In this document: positions 2,599 through 19,946 of the stretch, in pieces
Numbering within the stretch: the first letter of the stretch is position 1
Layout of the letters: each line of letters opens with the position of its first letter
Assembly (NCBI GenBank): GCA_965262725.1
Contig: OZ253555.1
Location: 3,488,001-3,552,000 of the forward strand
Length of the DNA: 64,000 bases
From: Dehalococcoidia bacterium
Lineage (GTDB): Bacteria > Chloroflexota > Dehalococcoidia > UBA2979
Direction of reading: 5' to 3'
Program-made: the position numbers and the translations under genes
Notes under the pieces: model-generated
Seen by the model: the letters and a program-made list of their open reading frames with translations, nothing else
Told to the model about the DNA's origin: nothing
Database searches by the model: none

Positions 2599-3684
2599 AT
2601 GGAACGGATGCGGGTTGCGATCGTCGGGCTCAGGCGCGGCGAGACATTCCTCCGCGTGCTGCGCACGATGCCCGATGCCGAGGTGGTCGCGCTCGTCGAC
2701 CCGGATCAGGAGCAGCGCGCCCGGGCGCGCGCCCTTCTGCCCGCCAGCGGCGACGCAGCGGAGGCCGACTCGCTCGCTTCGCTGCTCGCCGCCGACGCCC
2801 CGCCCGACCTCGTGGTGCTGGCGACGCCGCCCATCGGGCGCGTCGCGGACGCCGTGATGGCGCTCGAGCGCGGCATCCACGTGCTCAGCGAGATTCCGGC
2901 CGCGTCGAGCGTCGAGGAGTGCGACCAGCTGCTCGCCGCCGCGGAGGCCTCCGAGGCCACCTATATGCTCGCCGAGAACGCCCTCTACTGGGGCTTCGTC
3001 GACAGCGCGCGCCGGATGCACGGCTCCGGCGAGTTCGGCAGGATCTTCTACGCCGAGGCCGAGATGATGCAGGATATGCGCTCGATCCTGCGCGACGCCT
3101 CCGGCGCCCCGACCTGGCGGCTCGAGCGCACCGATCCGATCACCTACTGCACGCACAGCCTCGGTCCGCTGCTCGCGATCACCGGACAGTACCCGACCGA
3201 GGTCACCTGCATGGGGACCGGCGGCTCCTTCGACGAGCCCCAGATCCACGACGTGCAGACCGCGCTCATCCGCCTCACCGACGGCGCGCTCGTGCGGCTC
3301 ACCGTCTCCCTCGCGAACGCCCACTGGCACGGCCACCGCTTCACCCTCTTCGGCACGGAGGCCTCGCTCGACACCGGCTGGGTGTGGCTCGACCGCCCGC
3401 GGCTGTGGAGCGAGCGCATCCCCCACCTCACCGGACCGATCGAGCTGCCGCTCGGGACGGAGGTGCCGGGCGCCCCCGCCGCCGCGGTCGGGAGCGGCGT
3501 GGCGACGATGAACTGGATGATGATGCGCGATCTGCTCGATGCCCTGCGGGAGGGGCGCCCGCCCCCCGTCGACATCTACGACGCGCTGATGTTCTCGCTG
3601 CCGGGGCTGCTCGCCGCCGAATCGGCACGAGCGGGCGGCACGCGAATTGAGATCCCGCAGTACCAGCTCCGCCGCCCCGCGTGA
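2599..3684 (+). CDS. Gfo/Idh/MocA-family oxidoreductase
   Basis: MRVAIVGLRRG Rossmann start, VLATPP, HVLSEIP, YMLAEN, YCTHSLGP. Confidence 0.9.
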   Translation: MERMRVAIVGLRRGETFLRVLRTMPDAEVVALVDPDQEQRARARALLPASGDAAEADSLASLLAADAPPDLVVLATPPIGRVADAVMALERGIHVLSEIPAASSVEECDQLLAAAEASEATYMLAENALYWGFVDSARRMHGSGEFGRIFYAEAEMMQDMRSILRDASGAPTWRLERTDPITYCTHSLGPLLAITGQYPTEVTCMGTGGSFDEPQIHDVQTALIRLTDGALVRLTVSLANAHWHGHRFTLFGTEASLDTGWVWLDRPRLWSERIPHLTGPIELPLGTEVPGAPAAAVGSGVATMNWMMMRDLLDALREGRPPPVDIYDALMFSLPGLLAAESARAGGTRIEIPQYQLRRPA

Positions 3685-16435: not shown

Positions 16436-16532
16436 CAGCCGCGCATGCGCTCTTCTTCGGTTCGCGGTAGGGATGCCGGTTGCCCGGCACCCCCCGCACA
16501 GATCCGGACGTGCCCTCTCGGGCATCCGGCTC

Positions 16533-17861
16533 CTACCTCAAGTGCGTGACGGCAAATCGCTCCGCAGGCCACGGGTGAAGGATGGAGATTCGGGGCCAGT
16601 GTTTCTGGCACAGGGCAAGGATGCGCTCCCACGTGAAACGGTCGCGCTGCGACCGCCGTCGGAGAACGCGCAGCCAGAGCCGCTTCACGACACGAACAAA
16701 CTGCGTGAGCGCCGGCGAGCTGGTCGGCACCGCGTAGTAGCCAAGCCACCCACGCAGTACCCGCCCCAGCCACTGCCCCGTCGTCACGGGGTTGTCGTGC
16801 ATGCGCCGCCACAACTCGGCCTTGATGGCCTTCAGCGTCCGGCGCATCCGCTTCGCAACGGGCTTGCGCCCCAGCCCGAATCTCCCGTCGCGTCGGGTCC
16901 GGCAGTAGTGCGTCATGCCGAGAAAGTCGAACGTCTCCGGTCGGCCCTCCCCGCGCTTCCGCCTGTTCGCCAGCGCGAACCTGCCGAACTCAAGTAGACG
17001 GGTCTTCTCCGGGTGCAGCTCCAGCCCGTAGGCCGCGAACCGCTCCCGGAGTGCCTCCATGAACCGCACCGCATCGCTGCGGTGCTGGAACCCCAGGACG
17101 AAGTCATCGGCATACCGCACGATGTACGCCTCGCCCCGGACCTCCCGCGGTCGCCACTCGCGCGCAAACCAGTCGTCGAGCACGTTGTGCAGGTACACGT
17201 TCGCAAGCAGCGGCGATATCGGCGCCCCCTGCGGCATCCCCCGCACGAAATCGACTTCCGGCTCCGCGTCCATGACGCCGACGCTCAGCCACTTTCGTAT
17301 CAGGCGCAACACCCGCTGGTCCCCGATGCGCATCTCCAGAAACGACATCAGCCGCCCCCGGTCGATGCTGCCGAAGAACTCCCGGATGTCCACCTCGACA
17401 ATCCAGCTGACCTTGCGCCGTTCGACCGCGTAGGCCAGTGCGTCCAGCGCGTCATGCGCCGAACGCCCCGGCCTGAAGCCATGCGAGAAGCCGTAGTAGC
17501 CCGACTCGTAAATCGGGTTCAAAAGATTGTCCACCACCGCCCGCTGAACGATCTTGTCCTCCAGCGAGACGATACCGAGCGGCCGTATTCCCCCGTCCGG
17601 CTTGGGTATCTCTACCCGCCTGACGGGCTTCGCCCGGTACGCTCCACGGTGTACGCGGCCATGCAGGTCGAGCAATCGCTCGTCCAGCCCGTCCCCGTAT
17701 TCTCGCCACCTCACCCCGTCCACGCCCGGAGCCGCATCCCGCTTCAACGCGAGATACGCCTCCCGCAGCGCCTCCGGCGTGATGTGGTGCAAGAGCGCGG
17801 TGAGTTTCTCTCCCGGCTTCCGTTCCACGAACTGCCGTATCCTCTCCGCTCCGGGTGACAC
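16533..17861 (-). CDS. ltrA: group II intron reverse transcriptase/maturase without an endonuclease domain
   Basis: APGVDG, IPKPDGGIRPLGI, GFRPGRSAHDAL, PQGAPISPLLANVYLH, RYADD, HPEKT, FDFLG; no HNH domain at the C-terminus. Confidence 0.95.
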   Translation of the reverse strand: MSPGAERIRQFVERKPGEKLTALLHHITPEALREAYLALKRDAAPGVDGVRWREYGDGLDERLLDLHGRVHRGAYRAKPVRRVEIPKPDGGIRPLGIVSLEDKIVQRAVVDNLLNPIYESGYYGFSHGFRPGRSAHDALDALAYAVERRKVSWIVEVDIREFFGSIDRGRLMSFLEMRIGDQRVLRLIRKWLSVGVMDAEPEVDFVRGMPQGAPISPLLANVYLHNVLDDWFAREWRPREVRGEAYIVRYADDFVLGFQHRSDAVRFMEALRERFAAYGLELHPEKTRLLEFGRFALANRRKRGEGRPETFDFLGMTHYCRTRRDGRFGLGRKPVAKRMRRTLKAIKAELWRRMHDNPVTTGQWLGRVLRGWLGYYAVPTSSPALTQFVRVVKRLWLRVLRRRSQRDRFTWERILALCQKHWPRISILHPWPAERFAVTHLR

Positions 17862-17972
17862 CGCACCCCGACTCTGCGTCCGGACCGTGCCGGTGCTTTG
17901 AGGATTCCTCTCGGTTGGGGCCCTTTGCTCCAGCGACTCCGCCGGGGCTCGCGCCCCCTTCTATGAGGGTCG

Positions 17973-18306
17973 TCTGATCCGCAAGGCCGACGTGGCGGCC
18001 TTCTGCACCGTTCTACCGATCGCGCCTCCCGTCCGCAGCCCTGTGGTGGTTGTCGGTGCCGATGCGAGTGGTGCCGCCGTCTTGTCCCCGGGACGTTGTG
18101 GTGACCGTGCTTCTATTCGCACTCGTCGAGGGGCCGCTCCGGGCCCGGTGCATGATGATCAGCCTGTCTCCAGGGTGTGGGCGCTGCCATCTTGTTCCCG
18201 TCCTCGTTGGGACCAGGGGGTTCCGCAGTCGCCCGCGTGTCGGCATCTCTCGTATCCTCCGAAGCCCACCGGCCGCCCGGTCGCCTCGCTCCTCGCGTGC
18301 TGTCTG
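17973..18306 (-). ncRNA. putative bridge/seek RNA region of the IS1111 element (exact ends unknown)
   Basis: Contains CCCCCT (18220-18215) and GAACAAG (18197-18191) matching the two target arms, and TCATC (18158-18154) and ATAGAAG (18116-18110) matching the circle junction. Confidence 0.7.
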
Positions 18307-19398
18307 CTACGCCGCCTCGGCCGCGCGCGCGTGGCGCAACGGCTCGTAGACCTCCCCGCTCTTCCAGAGCGCAAGCATCAGCACCGCCAGTCGCCTCGCG
18401 ACCGCGACGACGGCACGCTTCTTCGCATTGCCGGCCCCCGACTCCGCGTAACGCAGCCCCCACCTGCGGAGGTCGCTGTCGGGGCCGAAGGGGCCCAGGA
18501 TGTAGTGCGCGGCCTGGTTCAGCACCCGGCGCAGCGCCACGTCCCCTTCCTTCGTGATCCGCAGCTGGGGCTGCCGATCACCGGAATCGCGGCTCCGGGG
18601 CACCAGCCCCAGGTAGGGCCCCACCTCCCTGTTCTTGGGGAAGCGGGCCGGGTCCTCGATGGTGAGGATGAAGGTGAGCGAGGTGATCGGGCCGACGCCC
18701 ACGATCTGCCGCAGCGCGCCGGTCTCCGCGTAGCGCTCGCACATCGCGGCGAGCTTCTTGTCGGCCTGGCGGATCTCCCCGGTCAGCTGCTCGATCTGGT
18801 GGAGCACCGGCAGCAGCGCCGGGCCCAGCTCCTCGGGGATGTGCTCTCTGACCGCGCGGTGGAAGGCCGGCGCCGTGCAGCCCGGAAGCGCCGCGCCCCA
18901 CGCCTTCACCGCGCCCCGGACGTGGTTGATGAACATCGTGCGCGCCCGGACCAGCGCCTCGCGGCTGCGGAGCACCTGGAGGTCCGCCTGCGCCATGGCG
19001 CTTCGGTGCCGGATGGGGAAGAGGAGCGCCGGGTCGAATCGGCCGAGCCGTGCGAGGTGCTCGGCATCGGAGCGGTCGGTCTTGCGCTGGCTGCGCGCGA
19101 TCAGCCTGACCTGCCTCGGGTTGGCGACGATCACGTCGTGACCGAGCTCCGCGAACATCCGGCTCAGCCACGGGGAACGCGGCCCCACCTCCATCACCAC
19201 CCGGGCGCCCTGCAGTGGGGTGAGCGCCCGCGTGAGCGCCGCGGTCGTGGTGCGGACTCGCTCCTCCCGCACGATCTCCCCGTCGCCACCGAGGACGCAG
19301 AGGTGGCTGTAGCGGTCGCTGACGTCGATGCCGACAGTCACGAGCTCCGCATCCCCCACCTTCCTGCTCTCTGTGACATCTGATGTACGCTGTGCCAC
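18307..19398 (-). CDS. IS110-family DEDD recombinase/transposase
   Basis: GIDVS, VMEVG, KTDRSDA (DEDD residues); GVGPITS; YLGLVPRSRDSG; AVARRLA; GTG start after AGGAG. Confidence 0.95.
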   Translation of the reverse strand: MAQRTSDVTESRKVGDAELVTVGIDVSDRYSHLCVLGGDGEIVREERVRTTTAALTRALTPLQGARVVMEVGPRSPWLSRMFAELGHDVIVANPRQVRLIARSQRKTDRSDAEHLARLGRFDPALLFPIRHRSAMAQADLQVLRSREALVRARTMFINHVRGAVKAWGAALPGCTAPAFHRAVREHIPEELGPALLPVLHQIEQLTGEIRQADKKLAAMCERYAETGALRQIVGVGPITSLTFILTIEDPARFPKNREVGPYLGLVPRSRDSGDRQPQLRITKEGDVALRRVLNQAAHYILGPFGPDSDLRRWGLRYAESGAGNAKKRAVVAVARRLAVLMLALWKSGEVYEPLRHARAAEAA

Positions 19399-19946
19399 GG
19401 TCGGTCTCCTACCTCTCTCGGCTCGCCTGAGCCGTTCTCCTGGGCCACCACGTGAGCCCGTGCTTGGAGGGGAAGTATCCCCTCTGAGGAGGGGACCGAC
19501 CCTCATGTCATCTTGTTCGCCGCCTTCATCGCTCGTACGGCCCCATCAGACTGCTGCGCATCGTTCATCATCGGCTACGGTTTACGTCCCTTCCCGACGC
19601 GGTCCCGGCGTACGACTCGTCGGGACAACGCGCAGCTCTCCCAAGTCCCGGCGATAGACGTGTGTGCGTGCATGGGGTCTTCGACACCGTGGGGCCCGAC
19701 CACGACTCGCCAGTAGCGCCGTCGCCGGTATTGCCTTCGACCAATCCAAGAGCCTCGGCACCCCAAATGGCCCTTTCGATGCTCATTAGCCCCGCCCGCA
19801 CACCCCGCTGCCGACGCTTCACAAGCCGCCTCGCGACGACCCGCGCACGGCTCGCGGAATGACATGAGTGGCTAGCTCTTTGCCATAGAGGACTTCCACC
19901 TCCTGCCTACTCGCCAGTTAGCCTGGCGCTCTGGATCAGGGCTTAT

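Follow-up and report, generated by a model that had tools for sequence, protein, structure and literature searches.

An IS1111-type insertion sequence apparently guided by RNA to a conserved site in a group II intron domain of a Dehalococcoidia bacterium

Introduction

How does an insertion sequence (IS) come to sit at one exact position inside a group II intron? The question is raised by a locus in a 64,000-nucleotide (nt) stretch of a Dehalococcoidia genome (assembly GCA_965262725.1, contig OZ253555.1, positions 3,488,001 to 3,552,000 of the forward strand; hereafter the window), in which an IS1111-type element lies within such an intron. An original prediction, drawn from the sequence, had claimed that the non-coding region after the transposase gene (tnp) of this element carries a bridge or seek RNA programmed against domain III of the intron, and that the element is a hyperparasite able to switch the intron off and to restore it by precise excision. 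Its sequence statements could all be located on the minus strand, on which every window feature described below lies; coordinates are those of the window unless a genome or a locus is named. In our judgement, it is highly probable that the IS1111 element at this locus is guided by RNA and that its guides are programmed for a conserved site in a domain of the group II intron.

Results

Recurrent insertion at one intron site

The element occupies positions 17960..19513 and sits after nt 420 of a host intron that measures 1918 nt without it (16460..19931), both being on the same strand. The ends of the element carry a 3-nt AAG ambiguity; comparison of full copies with empty sites fixes the boundaries, so that the inserted unit is 1554 nt, including one copy of the core. 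At the left junction the sequence ..GGCGAACAAG gives way to ATGACATGAGGG (GAACAAGATG corresponding to 19518-19509), and at the right junction ..GACCCTCATAGAAG gives way to GGGGCGCGAGCC. The core had been claimed to be AAG. The ambiguity is indeed there, but comparison of the relatives' ends narrows the common core to the dinucleotide AG, the first copy of which lies at 19512-19513 and the second, at the right junction, at 17958..17959.

The genome from which the window was taken, a single contig of 3.67 Mb, holds four full copies of the IS, with 0-4 differences among them, plus fragments. All four full copies are inserted at the identical site, GGCGAACA-AG-GGGGCG, of what is probably intron domain III (see below). 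The four occupied introns lie in four genomic contexts, possess different 5' exons and represent two intron lineages. Three of them belong to the main type, while the fourth (locus L003) is an intron of the other lineage, which lacks an open reading frame (ORF) and has its domain V ~165 nt downstream of the IS. The 5' flank of L003 differs from the main type at 277 of 418 positions (ungapped, position by position), and BLAST aligned short pieces only, at 74-88% identity; nonetheless, L003 has the same GGCGAACA-AG-GGGGCGCGAGCC.

The 15-mer of the empty site, GCGAACAAGGGGGCG, was found uninterrupted 10 times in the same genome, in an intron context each time. Thus, 4/14 exact sites are occupied and 10/14 are empty, two of the ten empty-site introns being truncated or interrupted farther downstream. 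Natural variants of the site exist as well (GAACAAAGGGG and GAACAAAGAGGAG); the latter is read by a neighbouring inverted ORF-less intron and is empty. One more 11-mer match, GAACAAGGGGG at genome position 2481572, is unoccupied. As the site is both conserved and present in multiple copies, the intron family serves as a multi-copy landing pad for the IS. The recurrence of insertions at the intron site, which had been anticipated, is therefore seen in 4/4 full copies in this genome and in one remnant in another genome.

Guide segments and their covariation with targets

The four short motifs named in the original prediction are present, in the order it gave, in the non-coding region after tnp. 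CCCCCT lies within 18224-18215 (right-target guide), GAACAAG within 18198-18191, followed by ATG (left-target guide plus core), TCATC within 18162-18152 (right-donor guide) and ATAGAAG within 18118-18108 (left-donor guide). The match to the top strand of the target is placed 5' of the match to the bottom strand, as in the IS1111 seekRNAs described in PMC11187229. When the 347-nt region was shuffled 200,000 times at the mononucleotide level, each motif occurred singly in 1-10% of the shuffles, and all four in order in 0/200,000. Because the motifs were defined post hoc, the real test is whether the guides covary with their targets, and they do.

The most instructive case is a variant copy in the same genome (positions 1707871-1712033; G000:C1, loci L005 and L006), which is 92-96% identical to the element in the window and is inserted in an IS3-like orfA (HTH_Tnp_1) at the site CCTCCCTC-AG-CTTCCGCACG. 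Alignment of the two showed that most of both target-guide blocks differ, together with one position in each donor guide. The right-target guide is changed from GAACCCCCT to ACGGAAGCT, the reverse complement of which (AGCTTCCG) is the right flank of the variant, and the left-target guide from GAACAAG to CCCTCAG, which is its left flank. The left-donor guide is changed from ATAGAAG to ATGGAAG, which matches the right end of the variant (CATGGAAG), and the right-donor guide from TCATC to CCATC, which fits its left end, AGATGG. All four guides are thus changed, each fitting the variant's own target and ends. A 2.6-kb insertion in turn interrupts the variant copy at IS nt 684-688, where there is a 4-5 nt overlap.

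The same correspondence was found among more distant relatives. A search for related loci yielded 22, namely 20 in seven Dehalococcoidia metagenome-assembled genome (MAG) records and two in Planctomycetota MAG records, with transposase identities of 48 to 95%. Guides were compared with flanks in the 15 elements with both ends and a recognisable target loop (the element in the window, the variant copy and 13 relatives). Seven loci did not enter the comparison: in L030, L033, L035, L036, L037 and L038 the right end was not found, and the loop of L022 escaped the pattern, although visual inspection shows a match of 10 nt between its guide and its flank. Beyond the core, cognate guides and flanks match over a mean of 6.2 nt, and at least 4 nt is reached in 12/15 (anchored exact matches); in non-cognate pairs (n=196) the mean is 0.75 nt and 3/196 reach at least 4 nt. 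The relatives share a conserved scaffold, which consists of GGGCGACTGCG, a block of 9-10 nt, a hairpin, a block of about 6 nt, AG and AT(G/T)GCAGCGCC, and the two blocks are hypervariable.

On the donor side, AU(A/G)GAAG fits the element's right end in 16/16 aligned elements, and (U/C)CAUC complements the left-end GATG(A/G) in 7/8 close-group elements with intact left ends, the exception being L018. The donor guides occur in two states only, so these counts represent few independent events. The target guide had also been claimed to run on into a copy of the recombinant left junction. This holds to a large extent, as the left-target guide continues as AUGGCA, which resembles the left arm of the element at 5/6 nt here, and a similar extension matches the left arm at 6/6 nt in the variant copy, L026 and L032.

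Several observations concern the guide region beyond these comparisons. Contigs of two sequencing runs from other samples (X1 and X2) differ from window positions 18188-18222 mainly at the two target-guide blocks, indicating that IS variants with other guides co-occur in those communities. Tandem duplications of the right end were noticed in some relatives (three copies in L025 and two in L029), and L027 carries the whole guide-RNA region twice (2615-2769 and 2937-3091).

Predicted fold of the RNA

The RNAalifold consensus of 12 distinct sequences comprises an outer stem, a target module, a small hairpin and a donor module. The target-binding module (18179..18234), which was delimited by this fold and by the hypervariable guide blocks, is closed by an 8-bp stem (GGGCGaCUGC/GCAGCGCC(C)). 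Its 5' loop is the right-target guide (18224-18215), an inner 4-bp hairpin follows at 18214-18199, and the left-target guide with the core (18198-18191), continued by AUG, makes up the 3' loop. In the donor-binding module (18108..18162), the 5' loop CUGAUCAUCAU includes the right-donor guide UCAUC and the 3' loop GAAUAGAAGCA the left-donor guide AUAGAAG, with a GCAC/GUGC stem and an inner hairpin between the loop strands. All guides are therefore unpaired loop strands between invariant stems in the consensus fold, and fall in two loops, the arrangement that the original prediction had suggested looking for. Only local and consensus folds were informative. A comparison of the non-coding region with Rfam 15 found no family at E <= 1, which reflects the coverage of the library and not the mechanism.

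Anatomy of the element

The transposase gene (18307..19359) encodes 350 amino acids if GTG 19359 is the start, and its frame is open back to ATG 19506, allowing 399 amino acids. Transposases of IS1111 elements are expected at about 330-350 amino acids. The N-terminal DEDD (RuvC-like) domain was detected as PF01548 (DEDD_Tnp_IS110; E 2.7e-19, residues 58-201 of the long frame), and the C-terminal domain as PF02371 (Transposase_20; E 7.2e-18). At the sequence level, the transposase is a distant match to the solved transposases of ISCro4 and IS621, with E 1.8e-09 to 8wt6 (IS621). The translation contains GLVPRSRDSG, which aligns with GLTPRRYESG of the ISCro4 transposase (9t56) with the serine of SG in register, and which fits the GL-P----S(T)G motif given for IS1111 transposases by Siddiquee et al. 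2024 (PMC11187229).

A repeat search identified a left subterminal inverted repeat at 19497..19506 (the CATGAGGGTCG region; 10 nt, 100% complementary) and its partner, CGACCCTCAT, at 17963..17972. The AG core and the extension ATGAC come before the left repeat, and AGA and the AG core come after the right one. The two form a perfect 10-bp pair set a few bases in from the ends, within the 7-17 bp that PMC11208160 gives for IS1111 subterminal inverted repeats. Non-coding DNA amounts to 347 nt after the tnp stop codon vs ~150 nt before the likely start. On the basis of the domains, the motif, the subterminal repeats and the 3' non-coding region, the element belongs to the IS1111 group of the IS110 family, as it had been classified from the start.

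The host intron and the targeted domain

The intron was delimited by comparing copies, its boundaries being placed where similarity among the copies ceases: it appears to begin with GAGCG at 19931 and to end with ..CGCGAAC. The usual 5' consensus of group II introns is GUGYG, and GAGCG, not this consensus, would open the intron here and in all copies. Domain I was recognised as RF02005 at 19675-19896 (170 bits), and domains V/VI as RF00029 at 16460-16534 (39.9 bits, E 3e-05, which is just under the gathering score of 40). Between them lies an intact ORF of 442 amino acids for the intron reverse transcriptase (RT; 16533..17861; RVT_1, 1.6e-36), the GUG start of which is at intron nt 517, 97 nt downstream of the insertion point. 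With signatures of domains I and V/VI and an RT ORF between, the host is a group II intron.

The targeted domain was folded with RNAalifold from nine intron sequences (the main type, a variant with an 87%-identical RT, relatives from four other genomes and the ORF-less type), which gave a single domain at intron nt 387-461. From the foot upward, a basal stem leads through an asymmetric loop to a middle stem, which is followed by an internal loop with GAACAAG on one side and GGCGGA on the other, and by a terminal hairpin of the GNRA type (GGGGC-GCGA-GCCCC). Four of the 23 pairs keep pairing through two-sided changes, three of these being in the basal stem. The IS splits this domain into a 5' half at 19512..19545 (nt 387-420), with basal stem, middle stem and the loop GAACAAG, and a 3' half at 17917..17957 (nt 421-461), with the terminal hairpin and the returning strands; the cut point is the exact boundary of internal loop and terminal hairpin. 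The next hairpin downstream (nt 482-519) contains the RT GUG start, so that the targeted domain is the last before the ORF-bearing domain IV and is domain III by position. A candidate closing stem of domain IV (CCUCAAAG/CUUGAGG) was rejected, as its pairing was unsupported in the one relative in which it could be checked (L055), and the label consequently rests on position and on the domain's own covariation. These two lines of evidence make domain III the probable identity of the target, and both the position and the shape agree with the claim that the element is aimed at a conserved intron region of that name.

Some features of the intron family itself may be mentioned here. The 5' exons of the intron copies have only ~11-14 nt in common (..GCCCTGATCCA), and several 3' exons share a longer repeat (CGAAGAAGAG..GGGTGCTCCGCTGTAGCTGGGACA), from which it follows that the intron itself lands in a repeated element. 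In another main-type intron copy, an element encoding a DDE_Tnp_1_4 transposase interrupts the sequence at nt 387, at the base of domain III (L067 795-1181, 1404-2729).

Further associations between introns and IS elements

An RT protein search across the class matched 2/151 genomes, including the genome studied here, at 1e-60. Intron relatives were taken from the genomes holding IS relatives, in which 15 pattern hits were obtained; three of these (L059, L061 and L066) were dropped as they are not introns. In three other genomes (G152-G154), 8/15 pattern hits read GCGAACAAAGGGGCG at the site, one base off (L055, L057, L058, L063 and others). Judging from the sequence, this change would shift or break the pairing with the guides of our element, and GCGAACAAAGGGGCG could be a resistant target variant.

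Rfam comparison of 20 relatives' loci placed RF02005 beside the IS in L018, L023, L024 and L038, as well as in L033. Locus L024, from another genome, holds a clean antisense insertion of a relative that carries other guides; it interrupts the 5' hairpin of an intron of the same family at nt 10-12, and the AG core flanks it on either side. Its guides match the flanks at 4 nt and 1 nt exactly, the left match rising to 6/8 if one mismatch is counted. The L024 locus is also twintron-like, as the intron that carries the IS lies within a second intron of its own family, at nt 124 of that second copy (L024 2906-3040, G154).

The geometry is reversed in L023 (~1345-1360, G154) and in L038/L070 (G157), where an antisense intron directly adjoins the left end of the IS, its nt 1 lying next to the fourth base of that end. 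The introns of L023 and L038 have changed putative exon-binding loops (UGGUAU and AAGGGC), which pair with the IS left end. This geometry suggests homing of the intron into the IS, which could not be confirmed: in the full-length case, L070, the 3' exon does not continue the IS end, and the intron of L023 is truncated at nt 1117.

A second IS110-family lineage was noticed in the genome studied here (2097 bp, a 370-amino-acid transposase, 12-bp subterminal repeats, four copies). It sits antisense at ~nt 287 of ORF-less introns of two lineages, at L067 3030-5125 and 7464-9600 (G000:C1:1952029-1954125 and 1956503-1958599), 1921491-1923464 and 2025008-2026853. Its 3' region comprises two 263-nt repeats, which are 88% alike, and the best matches to the target arms are split between the repeat copies.

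It is tempting to speculate that this IS clade and this intron family are engaged in reciprocal parasitism, both sides being programmed by base pairing, albeit we hold this to be a doubtful proposition at present. On the IS side, guides would have been re-aimed at ribozyme motifs that are hard to change, i.e., the domain III loop and, in L024, the 5' hairpin, and the presence of a second IS110-family lineage in introns of the same genome would fit such a habit. On the intron side, exon-binding loops would pair with the IS left end, which introns abut exactly in two genomes (L023 and L038). The ribozyme would be inactivated by the insertion and could regain its function through RNA-guided excision.

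Discussion

A mechanism for site choice

The mechanism that we propose is as follows. A bridge/seekRNA from the 347-nt region after tnp would direct the DEDD/serine recombinase to the intron. In its target loop, CCCCCU would pair with the top strand of AG-GGGG and GAACAAG with the bottom strand of GAACA-AG, so that both target guides together would specify the 11-nt site GAACA-AG-GGGG, which is the junction of internal loop and terminal hairpin in the domain just upstream of the ORF-bearing domain IV. UCAUC and AUAGAAG of the second loop would match the element's own two ends, and insertion would occur by recombination at the shared AG core, with the orientation fixed such that tnp lies on the strand of the intron. 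From the sequence data we infer that the RNA is expressed and that the recombinase binds it, that transposition passes through a circular intermediate and that interruption inactivates the ribozyme. We further propose that the IS is active or was recently active. It is conceivable that the intron itself, rather than a mere multi-copy conserved sequence, is what matters to the element.

Several results weigh against an RNA programmed for this site. The right-target guide pairs only 4 nt beyond the core, so that specificity rests on ~11 nt, and 3/15 elements have no guide-flank match (L023, L031 and L032), L023 and L031 having abnormal left ends. The stems of the predicted RNA are nearly invariant, with compensatory changes in 3/31 pairs; support for the fold from covariation is hence thin, and the support is mostly thermodynamic. 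The full 347-nt non-coding region folds no better than its shuffles (z = -0.94). The junction pattern at the intron site was found in 1/9 other related genomes searched. In that genome (L033), the same left junction lies in domain III and the intron shows 83% identity over its alignable flank; the element has lost IS nt 230-693 from its interior and ends, truncated, at IS nt 1396, and its target loop holds other, non-matching guides (GCGCGCTCC / GCGAGTAG). L033 may be a recombinant or hybrid of two copies, and it is a case of site reuse, not of guide matching. Two scans of metagenome contigs, for a target loop with these guides and for the right junction, gave 0 matches each. Of 24 sequencing runs, all of them in the form of contigs, four from four studies were compared (X1, X2, X4 and X6), and no circle-junction joint was seen in their contigs. 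One X2 contig bridges the left junction, and X2 may be the source sample. These points notwithstanding, recurrent use of the site and covariation of guides and targets lead us to keep RNA-guided insertion as our explanation.

Other explanations

The original prediction went further in suggesting that the element could be a reversible switch. Selection would then have favoured the silencing of the ribozyme through the split in domain III and its recovery through precise excision, and the element would regulate the mobility of the intron or the host genes that carry introns. The insertion does split a conserved structured domain 97 nt upstream of an intact RT ORF, occupied and empty sites coexist (four and ten of the 14 exact sites), and excision of IS621 by the same recombinase-RNA complex, less efficient than insertion, is documented (PMC13626964). 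However, sites that were never occupied look the same as excised ones. Joints that skip the 1554 nt were present in contigs of X1, X2 and X6, but the empty paralogues are expected to give such joints, which therefore do not testify to excision. Moreover, close relatives whose guides differ lie outside introns, so that the clade is not committed to introns. We therefore regard a switch as unlikely.

Alternatively, the IS may have entered one intron once, and the composite of intron and IS then spread by retrohoming, in which case the recurrent site would reflect the mobility of the intron and not targeting by the IS. Three of the four hosts are indeed near-identical introns at typical intron homing sites, and pairing of the 10-bp subterminal repeats in the RNA might, in principle, form a stem that closes off the insert. 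Nevertheless, the three occupied main-type introns represent three haplotypes, each nearest a different empty copy, while two of the three hold identical IS copies, which argues for separate insertions into pre-existing introns and against composite copying. The incongruence is plain in L001 and L002, the IS copies of which are identical and the introns of which differ at 7 sites. As the fourth host is a different, ORF-less intron lineage, and as guides match the site and covary in relatives, spread as a passenger is very improbable.

That the recombinase reads the site directly, the RNA-like matches being by-products of carried junction copies, is scarcely credible: the AUGGCA continuation of the left-target guide is what a copied junction could give, but the right-target guide corresponds to the opposite flank in reverse complement and lies 5' of the left guide, from which a conserved hairpin separates it. 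A copied junction does not give this arrangement, and transposases 89-95% identical to the one in the window accompany unrelated targets that follow the guide blocks.

Significance

If the element is guided by RNA as we propose, the genome studied here provides a natural and internally controlled case of guide reprogramming, in which two copies, 92-96% identical, use two targets in one genome with four guides changed. The catalytic RNA gene of a retroelement would be added to the natural targets of IS1111 elements, and one genomic parasite would live inside another, an IS within a group II intron. For intron biology, this implies that a conserved ribozyme motif can be a liability, since it is an unchanging address to which the guides of a recombinase can adapt. 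The 56-nt target module, in which two variable blocks are cleanly delimited, might also offer a compact natural template for engineering IS1111-type recombinases.

Comparison with known systems

Taken together, the mechanism appears to be of the published bridge/seekRNA kind, while the class of target appears to be new. No report of an intron as an IS1111 target was found in the full-text literature searched, and the supplementary target tables of the 2024 papers may list cases. 'Hyperparasite' is fitting as a description of nested mobile elements; the programming principle behind it is not new, as IS1111 relatives that target other mobile elements are already known.

The nearest likeness is to the IS1111 elements with seekRNA (ISEc11, ISPa11, ISKpn4 and ISPst6). 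As described in PMC11187229 (Siddiquee et al. 2024), they share with our element the DEDD transposase, the GL-P----S/TG motif, the subterminal repeats and a long non-coding region downstream of tnp with the same order of guides, and each IS or subgroup has its own specific target. In our case, by contrast, the target is a structured group II intron domain, and the RNA is a predicted one. The sequence of the element is not close to any named IS compared, in a comparison that was made without ISfinder.

The bridge RNA of IS621/IS110 (Durrant et al. 2024, PMC11208160; Hiraizumi et al. 2024, PMC11208158) is likewise a two-loop RNA, with one loop for reading the two target strands and the other for the two strands of the donor ends; a core dinucleotide is common to target and donor, and the recombinase is a serine/RuvC composite. 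In contrast to our element, IS621 encodes its RNA in the left end, and its guides stand in the reverse order. Its core is CT (PMC11208158), whereas the core here is AG as read on the tnp strand.

As to the choice of target, IS4321/IS5075 and the IS1111-attC group are also IS1111 members with fixed targets in other mobile elements. Their targets are Tn21-family terminal repeats and integron attC sites, respectively, a class that differs from the intron in our system. Group IIC-attC introns (PMC3001079) present the same kind of specialisation of a mobile element on the site of another mobile system, with the roles exchanged: there the intron is the invader, whereas here it is the target.

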